A stretch of 64,000 nucleotides of DNA from contig CAVKTH010000002.1 of assembly GCA_963659495.1 (NCBI GenBank), positions 10,712-74,711 on the forward strand, written 5' to 3'. The stretch is from Bacteroidaceae bacterium. GTDB lineage: Bacteria > Pseudomonadota > Alphaproteobacteria > RF32 > CAG-239. Position numbers and translations under genes: made by a program. The notes under the pieces were generated by a model that worked only from the letters and a program-made list of their open reading frames with translations, searched no databases and was not told where the DNA came from. Position 1 is the first letter of the stretch, and each line of letters begins with the position of its first letter. Of this stretch, positions 2,976 through 58,257 are shown piece after piece.

Positions 2976-3005
2976 GCTTCAAACATTTACAAATAATAAT
3001 CCTAA

Positions 3006-3045
3006 AAGTTACTGCGGTAATTTTTGGGATTTTTTTATTTTTCTT
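3006..3045 (+). terminator. Putative intrinsic terminator of the atp F0 operon
   Basis: Imperfect stem aagttac/gtaattt with loop tgcg, followed by ttgggattttttta. The stem is weak. Confidence 0.35.
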
Positions 3046-3096
3046 TACAACATAGTTATATATTGCTAAAATATCAGCGGATAGGCGATAGTCTGT

Positions 3097-3312
3097 CTAG
3101 GGCGTGAGAACCCTTTAATACAATTAGTCGTTATGCATAAACGACTTAAATTTTGTTATGCCGATTTCTGTTCGCTGGACGGATGTCGGCTGAATATGGC
3201 TATGAGCTGAATAAGCCGAGCCGTTCTAATTGTATTACGGTTTCTCAACATCCGCCCGCCATTTTGGTGGGTTTTGTTTTATGTGTAACAAAATTAAACG
3301 GAGTTTAGAAAT
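3097..3312 (+). ncRNA. Conserved structured 5' leader (candidate riboswitch or attenuator RNA) of pilin-like gene copy 1
   Basis: About 215 nt at roughly 80% identity to the region upstream of the second pilin-like gene (51176-51393, minus). The two copies preserve three hairpins through compensatory changes. One hairpin is agtcgtt-atgcata-aacgact (3126-3146) against agtcact-tgcata-agtgact. An intrinsic terminator (cccgcc...ggtggg + UUUUGUUUU, 3253-3280) lies 32 nt before the ATG. Confidence 0.6.
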
Positions 3313-4452
3313 ATGTATAATAATTTTGAAAATGTTAATGATAAATTTGCTGGCGGCACTAAGCCCACGTCTCTGGCACCAGTCATTCTAGGCTCTGTGC
3401 CTAGCATCTTGTGGAAACGAGTCTCTAACCTAGTTAATAAATTAACCTTATTATTAAATAAGTACTGGGATAGCATGCTTAGTGCTATTTGCAAGTTTTT
3501 TAAGTACCCCTCACCCGACGCCAAGACGTCACCCTCTCCCTCACGGGGCGAGGGTTATGGATTGCTTCGCAGCGCTCGCAATGACGCCGTAATTAATGGC
3601 GAGGGATTGCACCGCCCTTGGTGCCACAAGATACTAGGCACAGGGCCTAGTATGACTGGTGGCAGAGACGCTGGTTTTGTTAGATTGCTTCGTTGTTACA
3701 CTCCTCGCAATGACGCAAAAAGAACCAACATCGCATTTAAGGGTTTGGATGTCGTGCGTCAATACGCCGCACTTTTGGAGCGACGTGTACAACGAGGTAC
3801 ACGAGCGAGAAAAGCGCTAGTAGTGACCCGACAGGCAAACCCGCTAGGACGCAGTATGATAGAAATGCTCGGCGTTTTAGCGATTGTTGCCGTATTAACT
3901 ATTGCAGGTATTGCCTGTTATAGCAAAGCTATGACGATGTTTAAAATCAACAAATGGAAAGAAAATTTTACTATGATGATGACAAATCTTAGAGTCACAT
4001 ATTCTAACAGCCGCAGCTATAATACTGAGGCTCCGGGTAAAAACATGGTGAGTTTTTTCAAAGAAATAAATGTTATACCTGCTAATATGCTAGATGATGA
4101 AAATAAAGATTTATTCGGAAATATAGTCAGCATATATTCGCCGACATTTAGTCCGGAATGGAACCGGCTGACTATTCTGTTTTTTATGCCGCCGAATAAA
4201 GAATCTGTTGAAGTTTGCAAAGCTTTTTTCAGTCTCACTCCCGATTTTAGAAATATGTGGACGGTAAATCTCAATGATAATTTAAAAATCGGAGAATATC
4301 AACTATGCGGGTATGGCGTACCGGCTGAAATTGCTAAACAATGGAATTGTCAATATTATAGAGACGGCATTTTGCCGCAAATAGCTCAAAGCTGCGCTAT
4401 ATGTTCACAGTATTCCTGCGACCTAAAGCTTATAATAAGCAACAACAGCTAA
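3313..4452 (+). CDS. Prepilin-like protein (type IV pilin / pseudopilin N-terminal domain) with a long repeat-laden N-terminal extension; copy 1
   Basis: G-RSMIEMLGVLAIVAVLTIAGIA at codon 3847 matches the prepilin cleavage/methylation motif (Gly at -1, Glu at +5, hydrophobic helix). The C-terminal 200 aa are Cys-containing and variable. The MYNNFEN start is shared with paralogue copy 2. The 177-codon N-terminal extension (3313-3846) stays open despite being built from palindromic repeats. A true start near the TM segment cannot be excluded. Confidence 0.55.
   Translation: MYNNFENVNDKFAGGTKPTSLAPVILGSVPSILWKRVSNLVNKLTLLLNKYWDSMLSAICKFFKYPSPDAKTSPSPSRGEGYGLLRSARNDAVINGEGLHRPWCHKILGTGPSMTGGRDAGFVRLLRCYTPRNDAKRTNIAFKGLDVVRQYAALLERRVQRGTRARKALVVTRQANPLGRSMIEMLGVLAIVAVLTIAGIACYSKAMTMFKINKWKENFTMMMTNLRVTYSNSRSYNTEAPGKNMVSFFKEINVIPANMLDDENKDLFGNIVSIYSPTFSPEWNRLTILFFMPPNKESVEVCKAFFSLTPDFRNMWTVNLNDNLKIGEYQLCGYGVPAEIAKQWNCQYYRDGILPQIAQSCAICSQYSCDLKLIISNNS
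3371..3667 (+). repeat. MITE-like palindromic element inserted in-frame: 44-nt terminal inverted repeats (3371-3414 and 3624-3667), each with a ctagg-N7-cctag hairpin core
   Basis: The reverse complement of 3371-3414 matches 3624-3667 at 40/44. A shorter related element lies at the same relative position in copy 2 (51051-51112). The elements encode VILGSVPSIL and KILGTGPSMTGGRDA. Confidence 0.6.
3559..3717 (+). repeat. Two related attgc...gcaat hairpin repeats (3559-3588 and 3682-3717) inside the pilin-like 5' region
   Basis: ggattgcttcgcagcgctcgcaatgacgcc is paired with agattgcttcgttgttacactcctcgcaatgacgca. Both read in frame as LLRSARNDA and LLRCYTPRNDA. Confidence 0.5.
3739..3845 (+). repeat. 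105-bp palindromic repeat element (gggtttg...caaaccc), copy A, in-frame inside the pilin-like gene
   Basis: About 85% identical to 4508-4612. Its termini are inverted (gggtttg/caaaccc) and it has internal hairpins cgtc...gacg and gtgtac...gtacac. It encodes KGLDVVRQYAALLERRVQRGTRARKALVVTRQANPLG immediately before the prepilin Gly. Confidence 0.6.
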
Positions 4453-4461
4453 ACTAAAACC

Positions 4462-4503
4462 ATCCCGAAAACCGCAGCTGCAATCTTTGGGATGGTTTTG
4501 TTA
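4462..4503 (+). terminator. Intrinsic terminator after pilin-like gene copy 1
   Basis: A 9-bp stem aaccatccc/gggatggtt is followed by ttgtt. Confidence 0.5.
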
Positions 4504-4507
4504 ATAA

Positions 4508-4612
4508 CTCAAGGGTTTGGATGTTGTGTGTCAATACGCCGCACTTTTGGAACGTGGTGTACAAATAGTACATGAGTGAGAAAAGTGCAAGCAGAGACCT
4601 GACAGACAAGCC
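4508..4612 (+). repeat. 105-bp palindromic repeat element, copy B (intergenic, between the pilin-like gene and fba)
   Basis: Direct repeat of 3739-3845. This copy contains in-frame stops, so it is non-coding. Confidence 0.6.
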
Positions 4613-4621
4613 CTTATAAAA

Positions 4622-5671
4622 TTAGAGTTCGCCGGCAGCGTATCTTTGTGCCATATCCGACAATTTGATAGCTTTAATTTGGTCTGCATGTCCAGCAGCG
4701 CCAAAGGCAATATAACGAGCTTCGCAAACTTTCTGCATTTCTTCAATAGCAGGTTTCAAATATTTACGAGGGTCAAACTCTTTCGGATTTTCCATAAAGA
4801 AACGACGGATAGCGCCGGTAATTGCCATACGGGAATCGGTATCTACATTGACTTTGCGAACACCGGATTTAATACCGCGGACAATTTCTTCTACCGGAAC
4901 GCCGTAGGTCTGAGGAATAGCACCGCCGTAAGCATTGATTAAATCTTGCAATTCCTGCGGAACAGAAGAAGAACCATGCATTACCAAGTGAGTGTTAGGC
5001 AATTTAGCATGAATTTTTTCAATAACATCAATAGCCAAAATATCGCCGTCCGGTTTACGAGTGAATTTGTAAGCGCCGTGAGAGGTACCAACAGCCACAG
5101 CCAAAGCATCCAAATGTGTCAAAGCTACAAATTCAGCAGCTTCATCAGGATCGGTTACCAAGCGTTTTCTATCCAATTTACCCTCAGCGCCGTGACCGTC
5201 TTCTTTATCAGCCTTACCGGTTTCCAAAGAGCCGATAACGCCCAGCTCGCCCTCAACAGAAGCGCCGACAGCGTGAGCGCGGGCTACAACTTCTTGAGTT
5301 ACGCGAACGTTATATTCAAATGAAGCCGGGGTTTTGCCGTCTGCTTCCAAAGAGCCGTCCATCATTACAGAGCTGTAACCGTTTACGATAGCGGATTGGC
5401 AGATATTTACAGAAGCGCCGTGGTCTTGGTGCAAGCAAATCGGCAATTCCGGAAACATTTCAATACCGGCCATTACCATATGGCGAATCATTGGGTCGCC
5501 GGCAAATTTACGAGCGCCGGTAGAGGTTTGCAAAATAACCGGAGCGTTTACTTTTTTAGCAGCTTGCAATACAGCTAAAATTTGTTCCATATCGTTTACG
5601 TTGAAAGCCGGAACACCATAACCGTGTTCTGCCGCATGGTCAAGAATTTGACGCATAGATACTAAAGGCAT
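4622..5671 (-). CDS. fba: Class II fructose-bisphosphate aldolase
   Basis: 349 aa: MPLVSMRQILDHAAEHGYGVPAFNVNDMEQ..., with the CLHQDHG metal-binding region typical of class II FBA. Confidence 0.9.
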   Translation of the reverse strand: MPLVSMRQILDHAAEHGYGVPAFNVNDMEQILAVLQAAKKVNAPVILQTSTGARKFAGDPMIRHMVMAGIEMFPELPICLHQDHGASVNICQSAIVNGYSSVMMDGSLEADGKTPASFEYNVRVTQEVVARAHAVGASVEGELGVIGSLETGKADKEDGHGAEGKLDRKRLVTDPDEAAEFVALTHLDALAVAVGTSHGAYKFTRKPDGDILAIDVIEKIHAKLPNTHLVMHGSSSVPQELQDLINAYGGAIPQTYGVPVEEIVRGIKSGVRKVNVDTDSRMAITGAIRRFFMENPKEFDPRKYLKPAIEEMQKVCEARYIAFGAAGHADQIKAIKLSDMAQRYAAGEL

Positions 5672-7492: not shown

Positions 7493-8442
7493 CCCGCCAG
7501 TTCCTTGCGGCGCTTTTTAAGCTTAGTAAGTTTTTCGCTGACATTACCGGTATCGCGTCCGGTTTTAGCCAAACGGTCGTACATACGGCTGATTTCTTTT
7601 TCCAGATATGCGGTTTCAATTTCCGTACGCAAAACCGTGCGTTCTTGATATGTGCCTGTAGTGTTGATTTTATGCATATTTTCAATGCAGTCTTCCACTT
7701 CCAGATTATAACTGAGTTTTTGTTTAATAAAATACGGCAGCTCATAAACCAGCTGACGCGCGTTGGCATAAGCCTCCTGCCCGTCCGCGCATTTTATATA
7801 GCGTTTTTTCAAAAGGCGGAAAGCAATTTCCAGCTCCTCATTATTATCCACCACAATAAACGGCACCGGATTGGCAAAACCCTCTTGGGCGATGTACTTT
7901 AAGAACTCCAGCAAGTGATGGAAAAAGCCGTTAATGTTATAAATAATAAACGGTTTCATCGGCAGCATTCCGTCCTGCATCGCCACGCAGTCATAAGCCA
8001 GTTCATCCAAAGTTCCGACGCCGCCCGGGGCGAATACCACAAAGTCGGATTCCAAAAGCTTTTGCTTGCGCTCTTCCAAGGTTTTGGCAACCACTATATC
8101 CATTTTGTTAATTAACTCATCGTCATTCGGATATAGGTCAAAATATTTTTTGGTAGTAATTCCTTGAATCGGCGAACCCTCAAGCTTGCATTGGCGCTTG
8201 TTCCAGCCGTCCAGCACGCCTTTGGCTACAGCTCCCATAATGCCGCTGTTAGACAAGCCGAAATCCAGCTTAAACTCCATTTTTACTATTTTCTTGCCCA
8301 GATTGTAAGCCTCTTGAGCATATGCCGTATCATTGCCGGAGCGCGAACCGCCGGCCACAAACACGCGGATGCCCTCTTCTTTATTGGCCTGCTTAAAGCT
8401 TTGAATTACTTTTTCTTCTACATCACATATCTGCTCTGCCAT
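7489..8442 (-). CDS. LOG-family (TIGR00730) protein with a C-terminal extension
   Basis: VFVAGGSRSGND...PGGVGTLDELAYD Rossmann-like motifs. At 317 aa it is about 120 aa longer than typical LOG proteins. Its stop overlaps the start of the ABC gene. Confidence 0.65.
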   Translation of the reverse strand: MAEQICDVEEKVIQSFKQANKEEGIRVFVAGGSRSGNDTAYAQEAYNLGKKIVKMEFKLDFGLSNSGIMGAVAKGVLDGWNKRQCKLEGSPIQGITTKKYFDLYPNDDELINKMDIVVAKTLEERKQKLLESDFVVFAPGGVGTLDELAYDCVAMQDGMLPMKPFIIYNINGFFHHLLEFLKYIAQEGFANPVPFIVVDNNEELEIAFRLLKKRYIKCADGQEAYANARQLVYELPYFIKQKLSYNLEVEDCIENMHKINTTGTYQERTVLRTEIETAYLEKEISRMYDRLAKTGRDTGNVSEKLTKLKKRRKELAG

Positions 8443-50141: not shown

Positions 50142-50216
50142 GCCATTATAGCTCAGTGGTAGAGCACGTCATTGGTAATGACGGGGTCGCAAGTCCGATT
50201 CTTGCTAATGGCACCA
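50142..50216 (+). tRNA. tRNA-Thr (anticodon GGU)
   Basis: Cloverleaf folded by hand. Acceptor gccatta/taatggc, D-stem gctc/gagc, anticodon stem cgtca/tgacg with loop ttGGTaa, T-stem gcaag/cttgc, discriminator A, and encoded CCA. The T-loop reads tccgatt, giving an unusual C at position 55. Confidence 0.8.
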
Positions 50217-50422: not shown

Positions 50423-51175
50423 TCAAAATGCTAAAATAAGTCCGCAGACTTTACCGGCTTCTTTTGTGCATGAATTGCAAGCGCTGTTGATTTCGCTTAA
50501 AGACAAATCTCTTATACATTTTGAATTTGCCGAACAATAAGCCTCGCCCCAATAATAATAGCTGCTGTCCGTTGTAAACCACGCTACATACAGCACAGAG
50601 GCTAAAGGCTGCACGATATCCGACATTATCCGCTTGCATAACTTTGGAGAAAAGGCGGTTGAGGCTGATTTATTATCAACAACCTGAAAACTGCCTAAAT
50701 ACATATCTATAATTACACGCTCTCCAGAAGAAAAAACACGAATATAATTGCCGTTTGGGTCATGAAAATCGGAGCTGCTGTCTCTTACCCAAGTTTTCGG
50801 CACTAAATTTGCCGCCTCCACAATATCTGTCAGCCCATACTGCGCACCAGCTGTCCCATTTTTTGAAACGTTTTTTAAATCTGTAAGATGTTCTAACAAT
50901 CCATAAATTAAATAGCTGTATTCGCTAACAGCTTTGATTAGTTTGAATTGTTCCATAGCCTTGGAATATCCGGCAATTCCGCCGACACTCAGCACACCGA
51001 TAATCGCCAGCACGCCGAGCATTTCTATCATTGACCGACCAAAGGAATTTGCGTCTCTGCCGCCAGTCATTCTAGGTCGTGACGCACAGTCTGTACCTAG
51101 GATCTTGTCGCCCAAGGGTGACGCGACAGCGCAGAGCGGCGGGTATTCTAAAGCATTTTCAAAATTTTTATACAT
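50423..51175 (-). CDS. Prepilin-like protein, copy 2 (paralogue of 3313-4452)
   Basis: The MYKNFEN start lies at the same offset from the conserved leader as in copy 1. It contains the repeat-derived KILGTDCASRPRMTGGRDA segment and the G-RSMIEMLGVLAIIGVLSVGGIAGYSKAM prepilin motif. The C-terminus is Cys-containing and variable. The six-frame ORF start at 51346 is rejected because that extension lies inside the conserved non-coding leader. Confidence 0.6.
   Translation of the reverse strand: MYKNFENALEYPPLCAVASPLGDKILGTDCASRPRMTGGRDANSFGRSMIEMLGVLAIIGVLSVGGIAGYSKAMEQFKLIKAVSEYSYLIYGLLEHLTDLKNVSKNGTAGAQYGLTDIVEAANLVPKTWVRDSSSDFHDPNGNYIRVFSSGERVIIDMYLGSFQVVDNKSASTAFSPKLCKRIMSDIVQPLASVLYVAWFTTDSSYYYWGEAYCSANSKCIRDLSLSEINSACNSCTKEAGKVCGLILAF
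51051..51112. repeat. Palindromic repeat element (ctagg...cctag) related to the terminal inverted repeats at 3371/3624, in-frame in pilin-like copy 2
   Basis: gcgtctctgccgccagtcattctagg-[21 nt]-cctaggatcttgtcgcc aligns to 3371-3414 with a longer loop. Confidence 0.55.
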
Positions 51176-51393
51176 ATTTCTAACTCCGTTTAATTTGTTA
51201 CATAAAACAAAACCCGCTGTAAATGCGGGCGGATGTTCAGAAACCGTAAATCGTAATCGTAAAACGGCTCGGCCTATTCGGCGTGTAGCCTTATTTAACC
51301 GACATCCGTCCAAAAACAGAAGTCGGCATAAACAGTTTAAAGTCACTTATGCAAGTGACTGATTACGATTAAAAGGGTTTCTGACGCCCTAGG
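51176..51393 (-). ncRNA. Conserved structured 5' leader (candidate riboswitch or attenuator RNA) of pilin-like gene copy 2
   Basis: Homologue of 3097-3312, with hairpin agtcact-tgcata-agtgact (51342-51361) and terminator cccgc-atttacag-gcggg + UUUUGUUUU (51205-51235). Confidence 0.6.
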
Positions 51394-51448
51394 CATATCT
51401 CTATACCTATAAATTTTATAGCTTATGCCAAAAGGAAAGTAAAGAACT

Positions 51449-53143
51449 TTATTCGGTCAAAAAATTGCCTCTGCTATTGCCTTGCGATAAATAAATTTTA
51501 CCGTCTAAATAAACTACAGACAATTCTTTTTCCCGAATATTAGGGGTTTGAGTATCTGAATGTTCTTTTTCATAGTTTTTCAAAAATTCTGCAAACTCCT
51601 CAACTTGTTCCGAGGTTAAGTTTTCATTTTTCGGCTCAGGAGATGTTCCATAAGGCACAGAACCGCGTAAATAATCATAGACATCATTGCCTTGCGAATC
51701 AGTCAATTTCAAATCGGCGCCATTTTCAACTAAATACTTAGCAATATCTAAATGACCTTCTTGCACCGCATACATCAAAGCTGTTCTTTCTCCATACTGT
51801 ATGCAAATATCATCATTGCAATAATAACCGTTGTCTTTATTGCCGGCATTAGTCTGAGCATCTATATCTGCACCGGCATCTAACAATATTTTTACGCTGT
51901 CTAAAAAGCCGTATTGAGCTGCATACATCAACGCGGTTTTGCCTATAGAATTTACAGCATTTACATCTGTATTTATTCCTTTACACTTATTTTCGGAACA
52001 CTCCTGTAGCAATAAAGCCAAAACATCAGGACGATGAATGCTTATCATTAAAATTTCATCGGCCTCAACCGGTATCTGCGGCTCTTTAAGAGTTTCTCCG
52101 CCCTGAATTTGCTTTACAATCAAATCTTTAATTTCATCTATCGGCGCACCAGAGAGAATTTTATAGCGCAGAGTGCTTTTATCTACCGGTTCTCCGCGGG
52201 TTGCCGGCGGCATCATTACTAAATGAGCATATTGCTCTGCCATTTTTTCCGAAACCTTAAACGTTTTAACATAATGCTGAGCCAGCTGCTTTACCGCTTC
52301 TTTAAAACCTATGCCGTAATTTAGAGTTTCCGTAACTTTTTTATAATTCGGATATGAGGCCATCGCCCATTCTTCCAGCGGCATAACTTTCAGATATTTT
52401 TCATTGCCTTTGATATTCCAATCCGGATTATAGCGGTAAATGTTATCATAGTATTTTTCCTTTGCCTGATAAACAAAACGGCTGGAGCCGCCACTCTCAA
52501 AATAAAAATTGCTATACAAGTTATAGTAAAATTTGTTTACTTCTTTAGGAAAATCATATTCTTCATATTGCGAACAGTTAGAAATATCTATTGCTTCAGC
52601 TCCGTGACCGCCGCCGGCATAATCCAAAACAGCCGTCATTTTAAGCTTTCGCGCTGTAGGGCAGGGAACAATAATCTGCCATGGCGTATAATTTATATAA
52701 TTACTTTCATTATCCCAAATATTAAAAAATTTAGAAAAATGCAAAGCCCCGATTTCTATCAAGCATTTTAACTGCTCGTAGCATTTCAGCGGATTTTCTC
52801 CCACTAATTCTAAATAGTCCTCTTGGTACATTCTATAAAAAGGCTCATTCGGCACAATTTTTTCGTATTGAGCAACCAATTTTTCATGCAATCTTTGGGC
52901 AATTTGCGAAAACTCTTTAGTCTTTATCTGTTGAGGATGATAGATACTCTGCAATATTAAATATTCAATCGCAGCGGAATCATTTGTATCAATCAATTTT
53001 TTGAGCTGTTTAATAGCTTGATTCGGATTATTTTTAATGGCCTCGGTTATCTTTTCGTATTCATTATAATCTTTATTTGTTTCTACAGCAAACGCTGAAA
53101 AACTAAATAAGCTCATTAACAGCAAAATTAAAAACTTTTTCAT
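51449..53143 (-). CDS. Secreted ankyrin-repeat protein
   Basis: Signal peptide MKKFLILLLMSLFSFSAFA. At least three C-terminal ankyrin repeats (GKTALMYAAQYGFLDSVKILLDAGADID...; ERTALMYAVQEGHLDIAKYLVENGADLK). Confidence 0.8.
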   Translation of the reverse strand: MKKFLILLLMSLFSFSAFAVETNKDYNEYEKITEAIKNNPNQAIKQLKKLIDTNDSAAIEYLILQSIYHPQQIKTKEFSQIAQRLHEKLVAQYEKIVPNEPFYRMYQEDYLELVGENPLKCYEQLKCLIEIGALHFSKFFNIWDNESNYINYTPWQIIVPCPTARKLKMTAVLDYAGGGHGAEAIDISNCSQYEEYDFPKEVNKFYYNLYSNFYFESGGSSRFVYQAKEKYYDNIYRYNPDWNIKGNEKYLKVMPLEEWAMASYPNYKKVTETLNYGIGFKEAVKQLAQHYVKTFKVSEKMAEQYAHLVMMPPATRGEPVDKSTLRYKILSGAPIDEIKDLIVKQIQGGETLKEPQIPVEADEILMISIHRPDVLALLLQECSENKCKGINTDVNAVNSIGKTALMYAAQYGFLDSVKILLDAGADIDAQTNAGNKDNGYYCNDDICIQYGERTALMYAVQEGHLDIAKYLVENGADLKLTDSQGNDVYDYLRGSVPYGTSPEPKNENLTSEQVEEFAEFLKNYEKEHSDTQTPNIREKELSVVYLDGKIYLSQGNSRGNFLTE

Positions 53144-54296: not shown

Positions 54297-55103
54297 TTAT
54301 TTATCTGCGGAGCAGCAGTCTTCCACATCGCTGATATCGGCCATTGCGTTAAAATTTCGGATATATTCTTCTTTGGTTAAGCAATTTTCCTTAGCTTTTT
54401 TCTCGTCTTTATAAACTTCGCGCCAATCGGCTTCCGGCATATCCGACATTGTGTCTTTATTGCTTTCGGCCACATTTTTAGAAAAAACAACCATATATTC
54501 GGCGTATTCATCTGCCGTTACGCAGCCGTCTTTGTCTTTATCCATTTGAAAATAGTTTTCTTCGGCGATGCCCTGAGATATGCTGCCGATTATATTATCC
54601 GACATTTCTTCGGCTGATGTGTCTTGAAATTTTTCTAAGGCAGCTTTAGCCTTATCCATTTTTTCTTGGAAATCTTTCATTATTTCTTCGGGAGATTTAT
54701 TTGCCAGTTCCTGCGCCATTTTCTGCGCTTGTTCGGCACGCTCTTTGGCCTCATATTCGGTTTCTTTTTGCAAAACCTCAAAATATTCTTCTTTGCTGAG
54801 GCGGGAATCGCCGTTTCTATCGGCTTGCTTAAAATATTCCTGCATGCGGGATTTTTTAGCCGCTTTCTGCTCGTCGTTCAGATTAAAATCAATATCAATG
54901 CTTTTAAGCAAATAGCCGTATTCATTTTCAGAAATAAAACCGTCGCTGTTTACGTCATTAAGCTCAAAACCGCTGCTCAGCATACCTTGAATCTCCGGAT
55001 CCGACATTTTTTCCTGCACGGTTTTCTGCCAGTCAAAATCCTGCGTTTCCTCGGCTTGAGCTGAAAAAACAATCAAAAAGCTGAAAAGAACCAATTTATA
55101 CAT
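54297..55103 (-). CDS. Secreted EF-hand calcium-binding protein
   Basis: Signal peptide MYKLVLFSFLIVFSAQA. Three canonical EF-hand loops (DVNSDGFISENE, DRNGDSRLSKEE, DKDKDGCVTADE). Confidence 0.7.
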   Translation of the reverse strand: MYKLVLFSFLIVFSAQAEETQDFDWQKTVQEKMSDPEIQGMLSSGFELNDVNSDGFISENEYGYLLKSIDIDFNLNDEQKAAKKSRMQEYFKQADRNGDSRLSKEEYFEVLQKETEYEAKERAEQAQKMAQELANKSPEEIMKDFQEKMDKAKAALEKFQDTSAEEMSDNIIGSISQGIAEENYFQMDKDKDGCVTADEYAEYMVVFSKNVAESNKDTMSDMPEADWREVYKDEKKAKENCLTKEEYIRNFNAMADISDVEDCCSADK

Positions 55104-58084: not shown

Positions 58085-58257
58085 GTTGTTTATATGAAAA
58101 ATTTTAACGACTGAAAAAACTGATAACAACTAAAATACAAGACTTTGTTTCACATGAAACAGGGTCTTTTTTTATTTTATGCCGCCTTAAACTTAATCAA
58201 AATTTAAATTCTTTTATTTATGCTAAAGTCAGATTTTTATCTTTAATGAGGGTTGAC

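Follow-up and report, generated by a model that had tools for sequence, protein, structure and literature searches.

An in-frame hairpin element in the prepilin leaders of uncultured gut Alphaproteobacteria, and an orphan copy that makes one pilin-like gene appear bracketed by direct repeats

Does a pair of direct repeats enclosing most of a pilin-like gene amount to a device for exchanging the part in between, or has a small palindromic element merely come to lie on either side of it? The question is raised by a 64,000-nucleotide (nt) stretch of contig CAVKTH010000002.1 (assembly GCA_963659495.1, positions 10,712 to 74,711 of the forward strand; hereafter “the window”), in which two copies of a ~104-bp hairpin element, A and B, lie around the sequence encoding the mature part of a type IVb-pilin-like protein (gene 1), between atpF' and fba (coordinates of the features are collected in Table 1). 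An initial annotation, made from the letters of the window alone, had put the repeats at 3739-3845 and 4508-4612 and suggested that they would allow the excision or replacement of the enclosed “cassette”, two independent copies of a palindromic element being its alternative. The latter turned out to be essentially right: the element is probably a module resembling the Rickettsia palindromic elements (RPEs), which is restricted to the disposable prepilin leader and has spread in frame among paralogs, copy B being an orphan downstream.

The geometry itself is real, as direct repeats do bracket the locus, and the helix plus the variable domain is, quite literally, flanked by them. Globally aligned, A and B match in 87 of 105 columns (83%) with one 1-nt indel, the longest run without a mismatch being 22 nt; this 22-mer is found at only these two sites in the window and gave 0 matches in 100 shuffles, so the pair is not expected by chance. 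Both copies fold into imperfect hairpins (z = -4.4 for A and -3.0 for B) and carry terminal inverted repeats (GGGTTTG..CAAACCC in A, AAGGACTTG..CAAGTCCTT in B copies; written for matching against the ends of insertion sequences (IS) or recombinase sites, GGGTTTGGATGTCG), while the consensus hairpin of the element consists of a hypervariable loop atop an invariant 7-bp stem, with one clear GC/AU compensatory pair (23 vs 12 sequences). Copy A is coding, as had been noted, but does not run exactly up to the cleavage glycine, since its 3' end (...CAAACCC) is followed by G CTA GGA, i.e., it stops one codon (Leu) before the Gly. Copy B is indeed situated just past the terminator, starting 11 nt after the hairpin at 4456-4499 and ending 8 nt short of the stop codon of the convergent fba at 4622. 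The hairpin at 4456-4499 likely serves as a bidirectional terminator, judging by its T-runs, and a simple terminator scan made no call there. A template/variable repeat pair of a diversity-generating retroelement was also considered for A and B and rejected: they differ chiefly by C/T and G/A transitions, adenines not being favoured, and no reverse transcriptase gene is present in the immediate neighbourhood, the neighbours being atpF' and fba.

Gene 1 is an open reading frame (ORF) of 379 codons (3313-4452), the true start of which is probably ATG 3313 and not a codon near the element. Type IV prepilin leaders end in Gly, are cleaved on the cytoplasmic side and precede a largely hydrophobic stretch of ~21 residues that has Glu at +5 (PMC4471445), and just such a segment is found here (..NPLG/RSMIEMLGVLAIVAVLTIAGIA, the slash marking the cleavage site), with the Gly, the Glu +5 and the helix residues invariant in a 37-sequence alignment. 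The AlphaFold (AF2) model of the mature part (predicted local distance difference test, pLDDT, 86) has the long N-terminal helix packed on a beta-sheet that is typical of pilins, and the PDB entries it resembles most are all type IVb pilins, namely CofA, TcpA and PilS (probability ~1, template modelling (TM) score 0.5-0.65). Pfam and NCBIfam scans of both pilin-like proteins of the window gave no significant match (only PRK10506, E=0.028), so the pilin assignment rests on the motif, on the Bundlin/PilS_N Pfam domains carried by some homologues and on the fold. In the window, which was annotated in part, none of the ORFs inspected proved to be a pilus machinery gene.

A 20-mer from the 5' half of the element, which holds no information on pilin adjacency, was used as a probe against one genome per species plus metagenome contigs, and after the removal of chance matches 35 real copies remained (24 on genome contigs, 11 on metagenome contigs), all of them from uncultured gut Alphaproteobacteria, with a few in bins labelled otherwise. 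Thirty-three of the 35 occupy the leader-coding 5' ends of different type IVb-pilin-like paralogs, all with the same orientation and reading frame, and 30 of these 33 are flush against (L)G/RS, usually stopping one codon before Gly-1, the remaining three being one orthologous gene (loci L006, L034 and L035 of the related DNA) with one extra module after the element; the two copies outside leaders are window copy B and its ortholog in L023. Scatter over many unrelated sites, named by the initial annotation as the observation that would speak against its proposal, is thus not what was encountered, the association with pilin leaders being nearly absolute. As to the labels, the contigs of L007 and L050 (CAVGVF..., labelled uncultured Eubacteriales) and of L008 (CAVIDY..., labelled Bacteroidaceae) carry this alphaproteobacterial locus, the Fba of L050 being identical to that of the window, and the labels probably reflect mis-binning or mislabelling in public records.

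Element copies in different paralogs of one genome share 95-99.5% identity (96-99% when third codon positions are taken alone), whereas the next 12 nt are 67% identical and the adjoining helix codons 77% (~50% at third positions, though the peptide is 89% conserved); in other words, the element is a sharp island of concerted evolution beside helix codons that are saturated at synonymous sites. Moreover, each genome has element variants of its own, common to all of its copies, and identity within genomes exceeds that between them, which excludes simple descent with the gene as well as simple purifying selection. By these patterns, the element is a discrete unit, recently copied among the paralogs or homogenised among them.

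The element is, however, only the last of several insertions in the leader. Known prepilin leaders are hydrophilic and short (6-26, up to ~30 residues; type IVb leaders, 15-30; PMC4471445), whereas those of the two window genes have 178 and 44 residues. Relatives retain an uninserted form (ATG TAT AAA AAT TTT GAA AAA GGG CGT TCC ATG ATA GAA = MYKNFEKG/RSMIE, continuing as MYKNFEKG/RSMIEML), and short leaders of 7-9 residues are found among them (MKNNQIG/RS, MNFNQSG/RS, MYKNFEKG/RS), which makes the 178-codon leader the derived state. Over its 534 nt, the frame used has 0 stops, against 10 and 21 in the remaining forward frames, and its GC content is 0.48 vs 0.37 in the body; the matching ribosome-binding site (RBS) and MY[KN]NFE start recur at 9 loci, including the second paralog of the window. 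Every module type, and the (TC)n tract discussed below, is restricted to pilin leaders, no module of any type having been found outside them in the ~240 kb scanned: all 19 copies of the GATTGCTTCG..CTCGCAATGACG hairpin module in the DNA examined sit in pilin leaders, and the right-arm type (..PRMTGGRDA) of the large palindrome also closes the leader of the second paralog. Close relatives are polymorphic for the presence/absence of such modules, the sets of the window, L049 and L029 all differing, and the hairpin module at 3560-3586 is absent from the orthologous leader in L049.

The long leader is read here, as its open frame suggests, as one that would be translated and then cleaved off. The opposite possibility is that the element is a genuine initiation region, conserved for function and not for mobility: AAGGG (3739-3743) would be the RBS for GTG 3754, a basic 31-residue leader (MRQYAALLERRVQRGTRARKALVVTRQANPLG) would follow, and the upstream modules would belong to a 5' untranslated region (UTR). 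The length and basic character of such a leader suit type IVb pilins, with their leaders of 15-30 aa (PMC4471445), a gene caller picked this very GTG for P0001, and 27 of 27 assembled T2 heads (see below) are out of frame with their own ATG. Nevertheless, this appears quite unlikely, as in 20+ genes no stop interrupts the upstream frames for 85-200 codons, a stretch that reaches back precisely to the T1 ATG or the (TC)n tract, the genome-specific variants found in all copies imply concerted evolution and not plain purifying selection, third positions are conserved as much as first and second ones, the element is absent altogether from many paralogs, one orphan copy is outside any gene, and the GTG is lost in L024.

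How the element travels is a separate matter. A classical miniature inverted-repeat transposable element (MITE) with a target preference, mobilised by a transposase encoded elsewhere that recognises the sequence around Gly-1 and the helix codons, would account for a small (104 bp) discrete unit with terminal inverted repeats, no coding capacity of its own and sharp boundaries, for the nested insertions in the leader, and, as an off-target event, for the full-length copy B in an intergenic spacer. This is conceivable but rather unlikely: the flanks of the 35 copies show no consistent target-site duplication, no transposase, IS or parent IS with matching ends was found in the ~390 kb of related contigs examined, the orientation is invariant, and in one genome the homogenised tract overruns the element by 12 nt, which looks more like conversion than transposition.

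The preferred reading, that of an RPE-like module of the disposable leader, would run as follows: the leader would have grown from 8 codons (MYKNFEKG/RS) to 178 by the acquisition of stop-free hairpin modules, copy A being the last one; the element would have been copied among the 5' ends of paralogs by gene conversion confined to it, by targeted insertion, or by both; and the gene would tolerate it since the peptide that it adds in frame is lost, together with the rest of the leader, once the prepilin peptidase has cleaved behind Gly-1.

Whether B has any part in this was addressed at the atpF'-fba locus, for which, with fba as the anchor, the window and 16 further assemblies gave 17 versions, 10 of the 16 encoding an Fba identical to that of the window (an identical protein is found on 22 of the contigs examined). 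Copy B is at the same site in 14 of the 16 (15 assemblies with the window) and absent from L006 and L050; it is orthologous and vertically inherited in L023, L027-L029, L045, L048 and L053, and has an internal 37-nt deletion in L044, L046, L049, L051 and L052 and, by matching spacing, also in L047 and L054. All 15 keep the B-type substitutions, with no conversion to A-type. Judged by these comparisons, copy B is an old orphan, inherited vertically and evolving independently of A, and, being a separate, older and independent copy, it makes the A/B bracket a coincidence and not a working recombination device. That B could be the remnant of a deleted downstream pilin gene is conceivable but not favoured, both of its ends being exact, with paired termini, and nothing pilin-like following it in the 15 assemblies. 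The window spacer (4453-4621) lacks a 47-nt segment (..GAGACTTCTTCCCTTTTCCGGTATTTCTCCGGCAAGAGAAAAA..) with a small CCGG hairpin that is present between the terminator and copy B in L023, L027-L029 and L045.

Gene systems such as the Neisseria pilE/pilS and Borrelia vlsE have a variable surface domain replaced by recombination via conserved flanks, and it was in this sense that A and B had been proposed to act, i.e., as functional repeats through which the cassette is excised or replaced, by recombination either between the two or with donor cassettes bearing the same flanks. The A/B geometry is there, and the same A...B frame does hold different globular domains in two lineages, namely body1 (window, L029) and the 46% identical body-Y (L023). 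Even so, this proposal is largely refuted and can be given hardly any credence: A and B are only 83% identical, with 22 nt as the longest identical run; A-type and B-type sequences are distinct in every assembly, B never having been homogenised with A; neither an A x B deletion product nor a hybrid element was found among the 17 versions of the locus; no other bracketed pilin-like gene is present among the copies found; and no silent promoterless cassettes, which the initial annotation had recommended looking for, were seen among the 33 leader copies, each element copy following a complete head with RBS and start codon wherever the contig reaches far enough upstream. Silent donor cassettes and breakpoints in the flanking repeats, the two hallmarks of pilE/pilS- or vlsE-type variation, are thus both missing here.

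The locus is, for all that, hyper-variable, with at least five architectures among strains whose flanks are ~99% identical. There is a two-gene form (T1 head-pilin-X, then T2 head-(TC)n-modules-element-body1), a one-gene form, represented by the window, L049 and L029, that combines a T1 head with modules and the element, an L051 form in which T1 is fused straight to body1, disrupted forms (L045, L048, L053), and L050, with an unrelated pilin and no copy B. L051 is a chimera whose crossover falls within the N-terminal helix codons, with 99% identity to L044 everywhere else, and represents a deletion between tandem pilin genes. From pilin-X through the T2 head and copy A into the first ~75 nt of the mature codons, L023 and L044 share 97-100% identity; across a globular domain of ~520 nt the figure falls to ~40%, and it is back at 100% over the final 15-35 nt of the ORF and in the terminator. 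This amounts to a true cassette replacement, its flanks being the helix codons and the C-terminal tail and not A and B; the idea of a variable pilin domain replaced via conserved flanks hence survives, though with breakpoints inside the ORF instead of at the 104-bp repeats. No donor of body-Y was found among the 68 pilin bodies of the loci examined, the best match being 43%. The window's own body (3847-4449) is only ~84% identical to the alleles in L027-L029 and L044-L052, which come from strains with 100% identical Fba and are mutually 97-98% identical where compared; the allele of the window is thus a separate one, in a gene that is fast-evolving or recombining. Taken together, the variability of the locus arises by four routes other than A/B recombination: gain/loss of modules, deletion between tandem genes via the helix codons conserved at their N-termini, replacement of the globular domain with the helix codons as one boundary and the C-terminal tail/terminator as the other, and, in the heads of relatives, (TC)n slippage.

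A more ambitious role for the element itself may be envisaged, in which a near-identical patch of ~100 bp is kept at every leader/mature junction so that RecA-mediated exchange can re-pair heads and bodies. The same body does occur behind different heads/leaders in strains with ~99% identical flanks, the same T2 head and element precede different bodies, and the very high, genome-specific and sharp-edged identity of the element, invariant in position, is what such an adaptor would call for. Then again, the crossovers that were mapped (L051; L023 vs L044) all miss the element, falling within the helix codons or deeper in the gene, chromosomal rearrangements would be expected from reciprocal exchange between copies at dispersed sites, nothing indicates a fitness benefit, and some of the head differences could be assembly artefacts, which leaves this a doubtful proposition. 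Equally tentative is its broader form, in which the element and its companion modules would be a dedicated pilin-leader system, copied to just the leader/mature junction and giving ~20+ paralogs a translated-then-cleaved homology adaptor for the re-pairing of heads (the riboswitch-like T1 or the phase-variable (TC)n kind) and bodies, with prepilin leaders of 100-200 residues as the outcome.

The heads themselves deserve a description, since two kinds are found. The ~200-nt T1 head upstream of gene 1, with a terminator ~30 nt ahead of the RBS, shares 84% identity with the sequence that precedes the second paralog of the window; its RNAalifold consensus (10 sequences) is multi-stem, with 68 pairs, 20 of them showing compensatory changes, and nhmmer found 20 copies in the DNA examined, nearly all followed by a pilin-like gene. 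Rfam gave nothing at threshold for T1 (a permissive scan of 3000-4700 yielded a weak sRNA-Xcc1/C4 match, E=0.008) and, in the same permissive scan, no match for the element, the gathering-threshold scan of the window returning one tRNA only. The T1 RNA is a candidate for a new cis-regulatory leader, riboswitch or attenuator, while the promoter before it is a putative one.

The T2 heads, found in relatives only, consist of a conserved promoter (TTGACTT-17-TATAGAAT), an RBS and ATG AAA AAT AAG CTA TTC AAA GG, followed by a (TC)n tract, the length of which sets the frame. At the orthologous second gene, the tract has 15 nt (L027, L044), 17 nt (L023, L028) or 25 nt (L054), and only the 25-nt one is in frame; among 27 distinct assembled T2 heads, 18 have 15 nt and nine have 17 nt, all out of frame. 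Such a length-variable 5' coding repeat fits a slipped-strand, phase-variable contingency locus that would mostly be OFF. Both pilin-like genes of the window have T1 heads and no (TC)n tract.

Several points weigh against the reading of the element as a translated and discarded leader module. Translated prepilin leaders of 100-200 residues would be unprecedented, known ones having 6-30 aa (PMC4471445), and a start at GTG 3754, with AAGGG before it, keeps a small share of the probability, as said above. Neither a transposase nor a target-site duplication nor a parent IS sharing the ends of the element turned up, and gene conversion alone fails to explain the first arrival at the same site in so many paralogs. 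The comparison covers ~390 kb of related DNA in contigs, and metagenome assemblers may make false joins at repeats; the main architectures, however, were encountered repeatedly, in samples independent of one another. Lastly, the termini of copy B come in three mutually compensated versions (AAGGGTTTG..CAAGCCCTT; AAGGACTTG..CAAGTCCTT; AAGTGCTTG..CAAGCACTT), and B could accordingly have a function of its own, e.g., as an RNA hairpin in the fba 3' UTR, and not be a dead relic; such compensation could equally be expected from template-switch (templated) repair within the palindrome. A literature search on these bacteria or on repeat-laden prepilin leaders found nothing relevant.

Table 1. Features of the window discussed in the text, with the places where the two kinds of head occur (L numbers, loci of the related DNA).
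Feature	Position	Strand	Remarks
Putative sigma-70-like promoter, TTTACA-17-TAAAAT with TG	3044-3072	+	consensus scan, 10/12 matches; just past the atpF' terminator (2998-3031)
T1 head, conserved structured RNA, ~200 nt	3080-3281	+	intrinsic terminator 3254-3272 and T-run at its end
RBS GGAG (3300-3303) and native start ATG 3313, MYNNFEN	3300-3333	+	apparent remnant of the ancestral short leader
Inflated leader-coding region, 178 codons	3313-3846	+	nested hairpin modules
Large palindromic module	3358-3680	+	inverted repeat I1; arms 3358-3421 and 3617-3680, 83% complementary, other modules nested between
Short hairpin module GATTGCTTCG..CTCGCAATGACG, peptide LLRSARND	3560-3586	+	indel vs L049
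Second short hairpin module of the same kind, LLRCYTPRND	3683-3716	+	directly upstream of ..KRTNIAF and copy A
Copy A, ~104-bp hairpin element	3739-3842	+	in frame, peptide KGLDVVRQYAALLERRVQRGTRARKALVVTRQANP
Gly-1 codon (3847-3849) and mature type IVb-pilin-like protein (RSMIEMLGVLAIV.., Glu +5)	3847-4452	+	stop 4450-4452
Putative bidirectional terminator hairpin (pilin-like gene and fba)	4456-4499		inverted repeat I2, T-runs on both strands
Copy B, orphan hairpin element	4511-4613	+	spacer between the terminator and the fba stop codon
fba, class II fructose-bisphosphate aldolase, convergent	4622-5671	-	Pfam PF01116, E=1.6e-90
Second pilin-like paralog	50423-51175	-	T1 RNA 51203-51402, start as in gene 1; 44-residue leader ends ..PRMTGGRDANSFG/RS
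Host-interaction-type genes near the second paralog	51449-53143, 54297-55103, 58246-63279, 63299-63907		
T1 heads, places of occurrence	3080-3281 (+), 51203-51402 (-)		also L003, L018, L023, L024, L026-L029, L043-L054
T2 heads (relatives only)			L001-L003, L005, L010, L012, L015-L019, L021-L028, L031, L032, L034-L036, L038, L044, L046, L054

The second pilin-like paralog of the window shares with gene 1 ~215 nt of conserved upstream sequence, the RBS and the MY[NK]NFEN start, but is only 36% identical to it outside the N-terminal helix, and the last module of its leader differs. A tRNA gene (50142-50213) is found just downstream of it, and the genes of host-interaction type in its vicinity comprise an ankyrin-repeat gene, an EF-hand gene, a 1677-aa autotransporter gene with internal DNA repeats (59817-62039) and a Fic-domain gene. 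Elsewhere, on CAKQLF010000001.1, two element copies of opposite orientation would be ~300 nt apart (L020, ~7720-8000; L006, 1-300) if the two loci abut, in which case they would sit between divergently oriented pilin-like genes, with the leader ORFs running toward each other, and could form an invertible or shared head region.

What, then, would such a module in such a place mean? RPEs are known as apparently random passengers, whereas the elements of the present set are private to one family and keep to one safe harbour, the pilin leader that is cleaved off. Should the leaders be translated, the range of prepilin leaders would extend from 6-30 to ~200 residues, which would challenge the presumed limits of the prepilin peptidase and of targeting by the signal recognition particle (SRP); at a more mundane level, the module-laden leaders explain why gene callers give these proteins wildly different N-termini. 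The family would amount to a highly variable set of surface-filament genes in common uncultured human and pig gut Alphaproteobacteria, with (TC)n phase variation, head swapping and domain replacement, a variability that may be relevant to host or phage interaction, while the conserved structured RNA before these genes is a candidate new cis-regulator. If the doubtful adaptor proposition were to prove true, it would be a previously undescribed organisation of antigenic or phase variation in an uncultured gut alphaproteobacterium.

Among known systems, the CTCTT repeats of the Neisseria opa genes form a simple-sequence contingency locus, pentanucleotide and belonging to an outer-membrane protein. 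The T2 heads of relatives are similar in having (TC)n just past the start codon, with only some lengths in frame, but differ in the dinucleotide unit and in the pilin-like product, and the two genes of the window itself lack the tract (simple-sequence contingency loci: PMC5354566). With pilE/pilS and vlsE, the locus shares the one visible domain replacement (L023 vs L044), whereas each of its copies is a complete gene that has a promoter, an RBS and a start to itself, silent cassettes were not encountered, and the flanks are the helix codons and the C-terminal tail. The mature fold, Gly-1, Glu +5 and the hydrophobic helix are those of the type IVb major pilins TcpA, CofA and PilS, in contrast to the 178-residue leader (vs 6-30 residues; PMC4471445) and to the dozens of paralogs scattered among housekeeping genes. 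Palindromic amphipathic repeat coding elements (PARCELs) likewise consist of palindromic, protein-coding repeats that extend membrane-targeted proteins and are shuffled in their genomes (PMC2996958), yet they are tandem 25-residue domains kept in the mature protein, whereas the modules seen here form a heterogeneous set and belong to a segment that cleavage presumably removes. The Correia/NEMIS elements of Neisseria and bacterial MITEs are similarly small, have terminal inverted repeats, form hairpins in transcripts, are found near surface-protein genes and can nest (PMC10969869), but neither a target-site duplication nor a parent IS was seen for the present element, which is not genome-wide and would be translated in place of being intergenic. 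The closest analogue is the RPE: ~100-150-bp palindromes lying in frame and without stops in genes, and translated as an extra peptide, tolerated wherever the protein can accommodate it (PMC10969869), just as the element described here would be. RPEs, however, are scattered over many unrelated genes and intergenic DNA, whereas this element keeps, in 33 of 35 copies, to the leader of one pilin-like family, in one orientation and one frame, and is homogenised within each genome.

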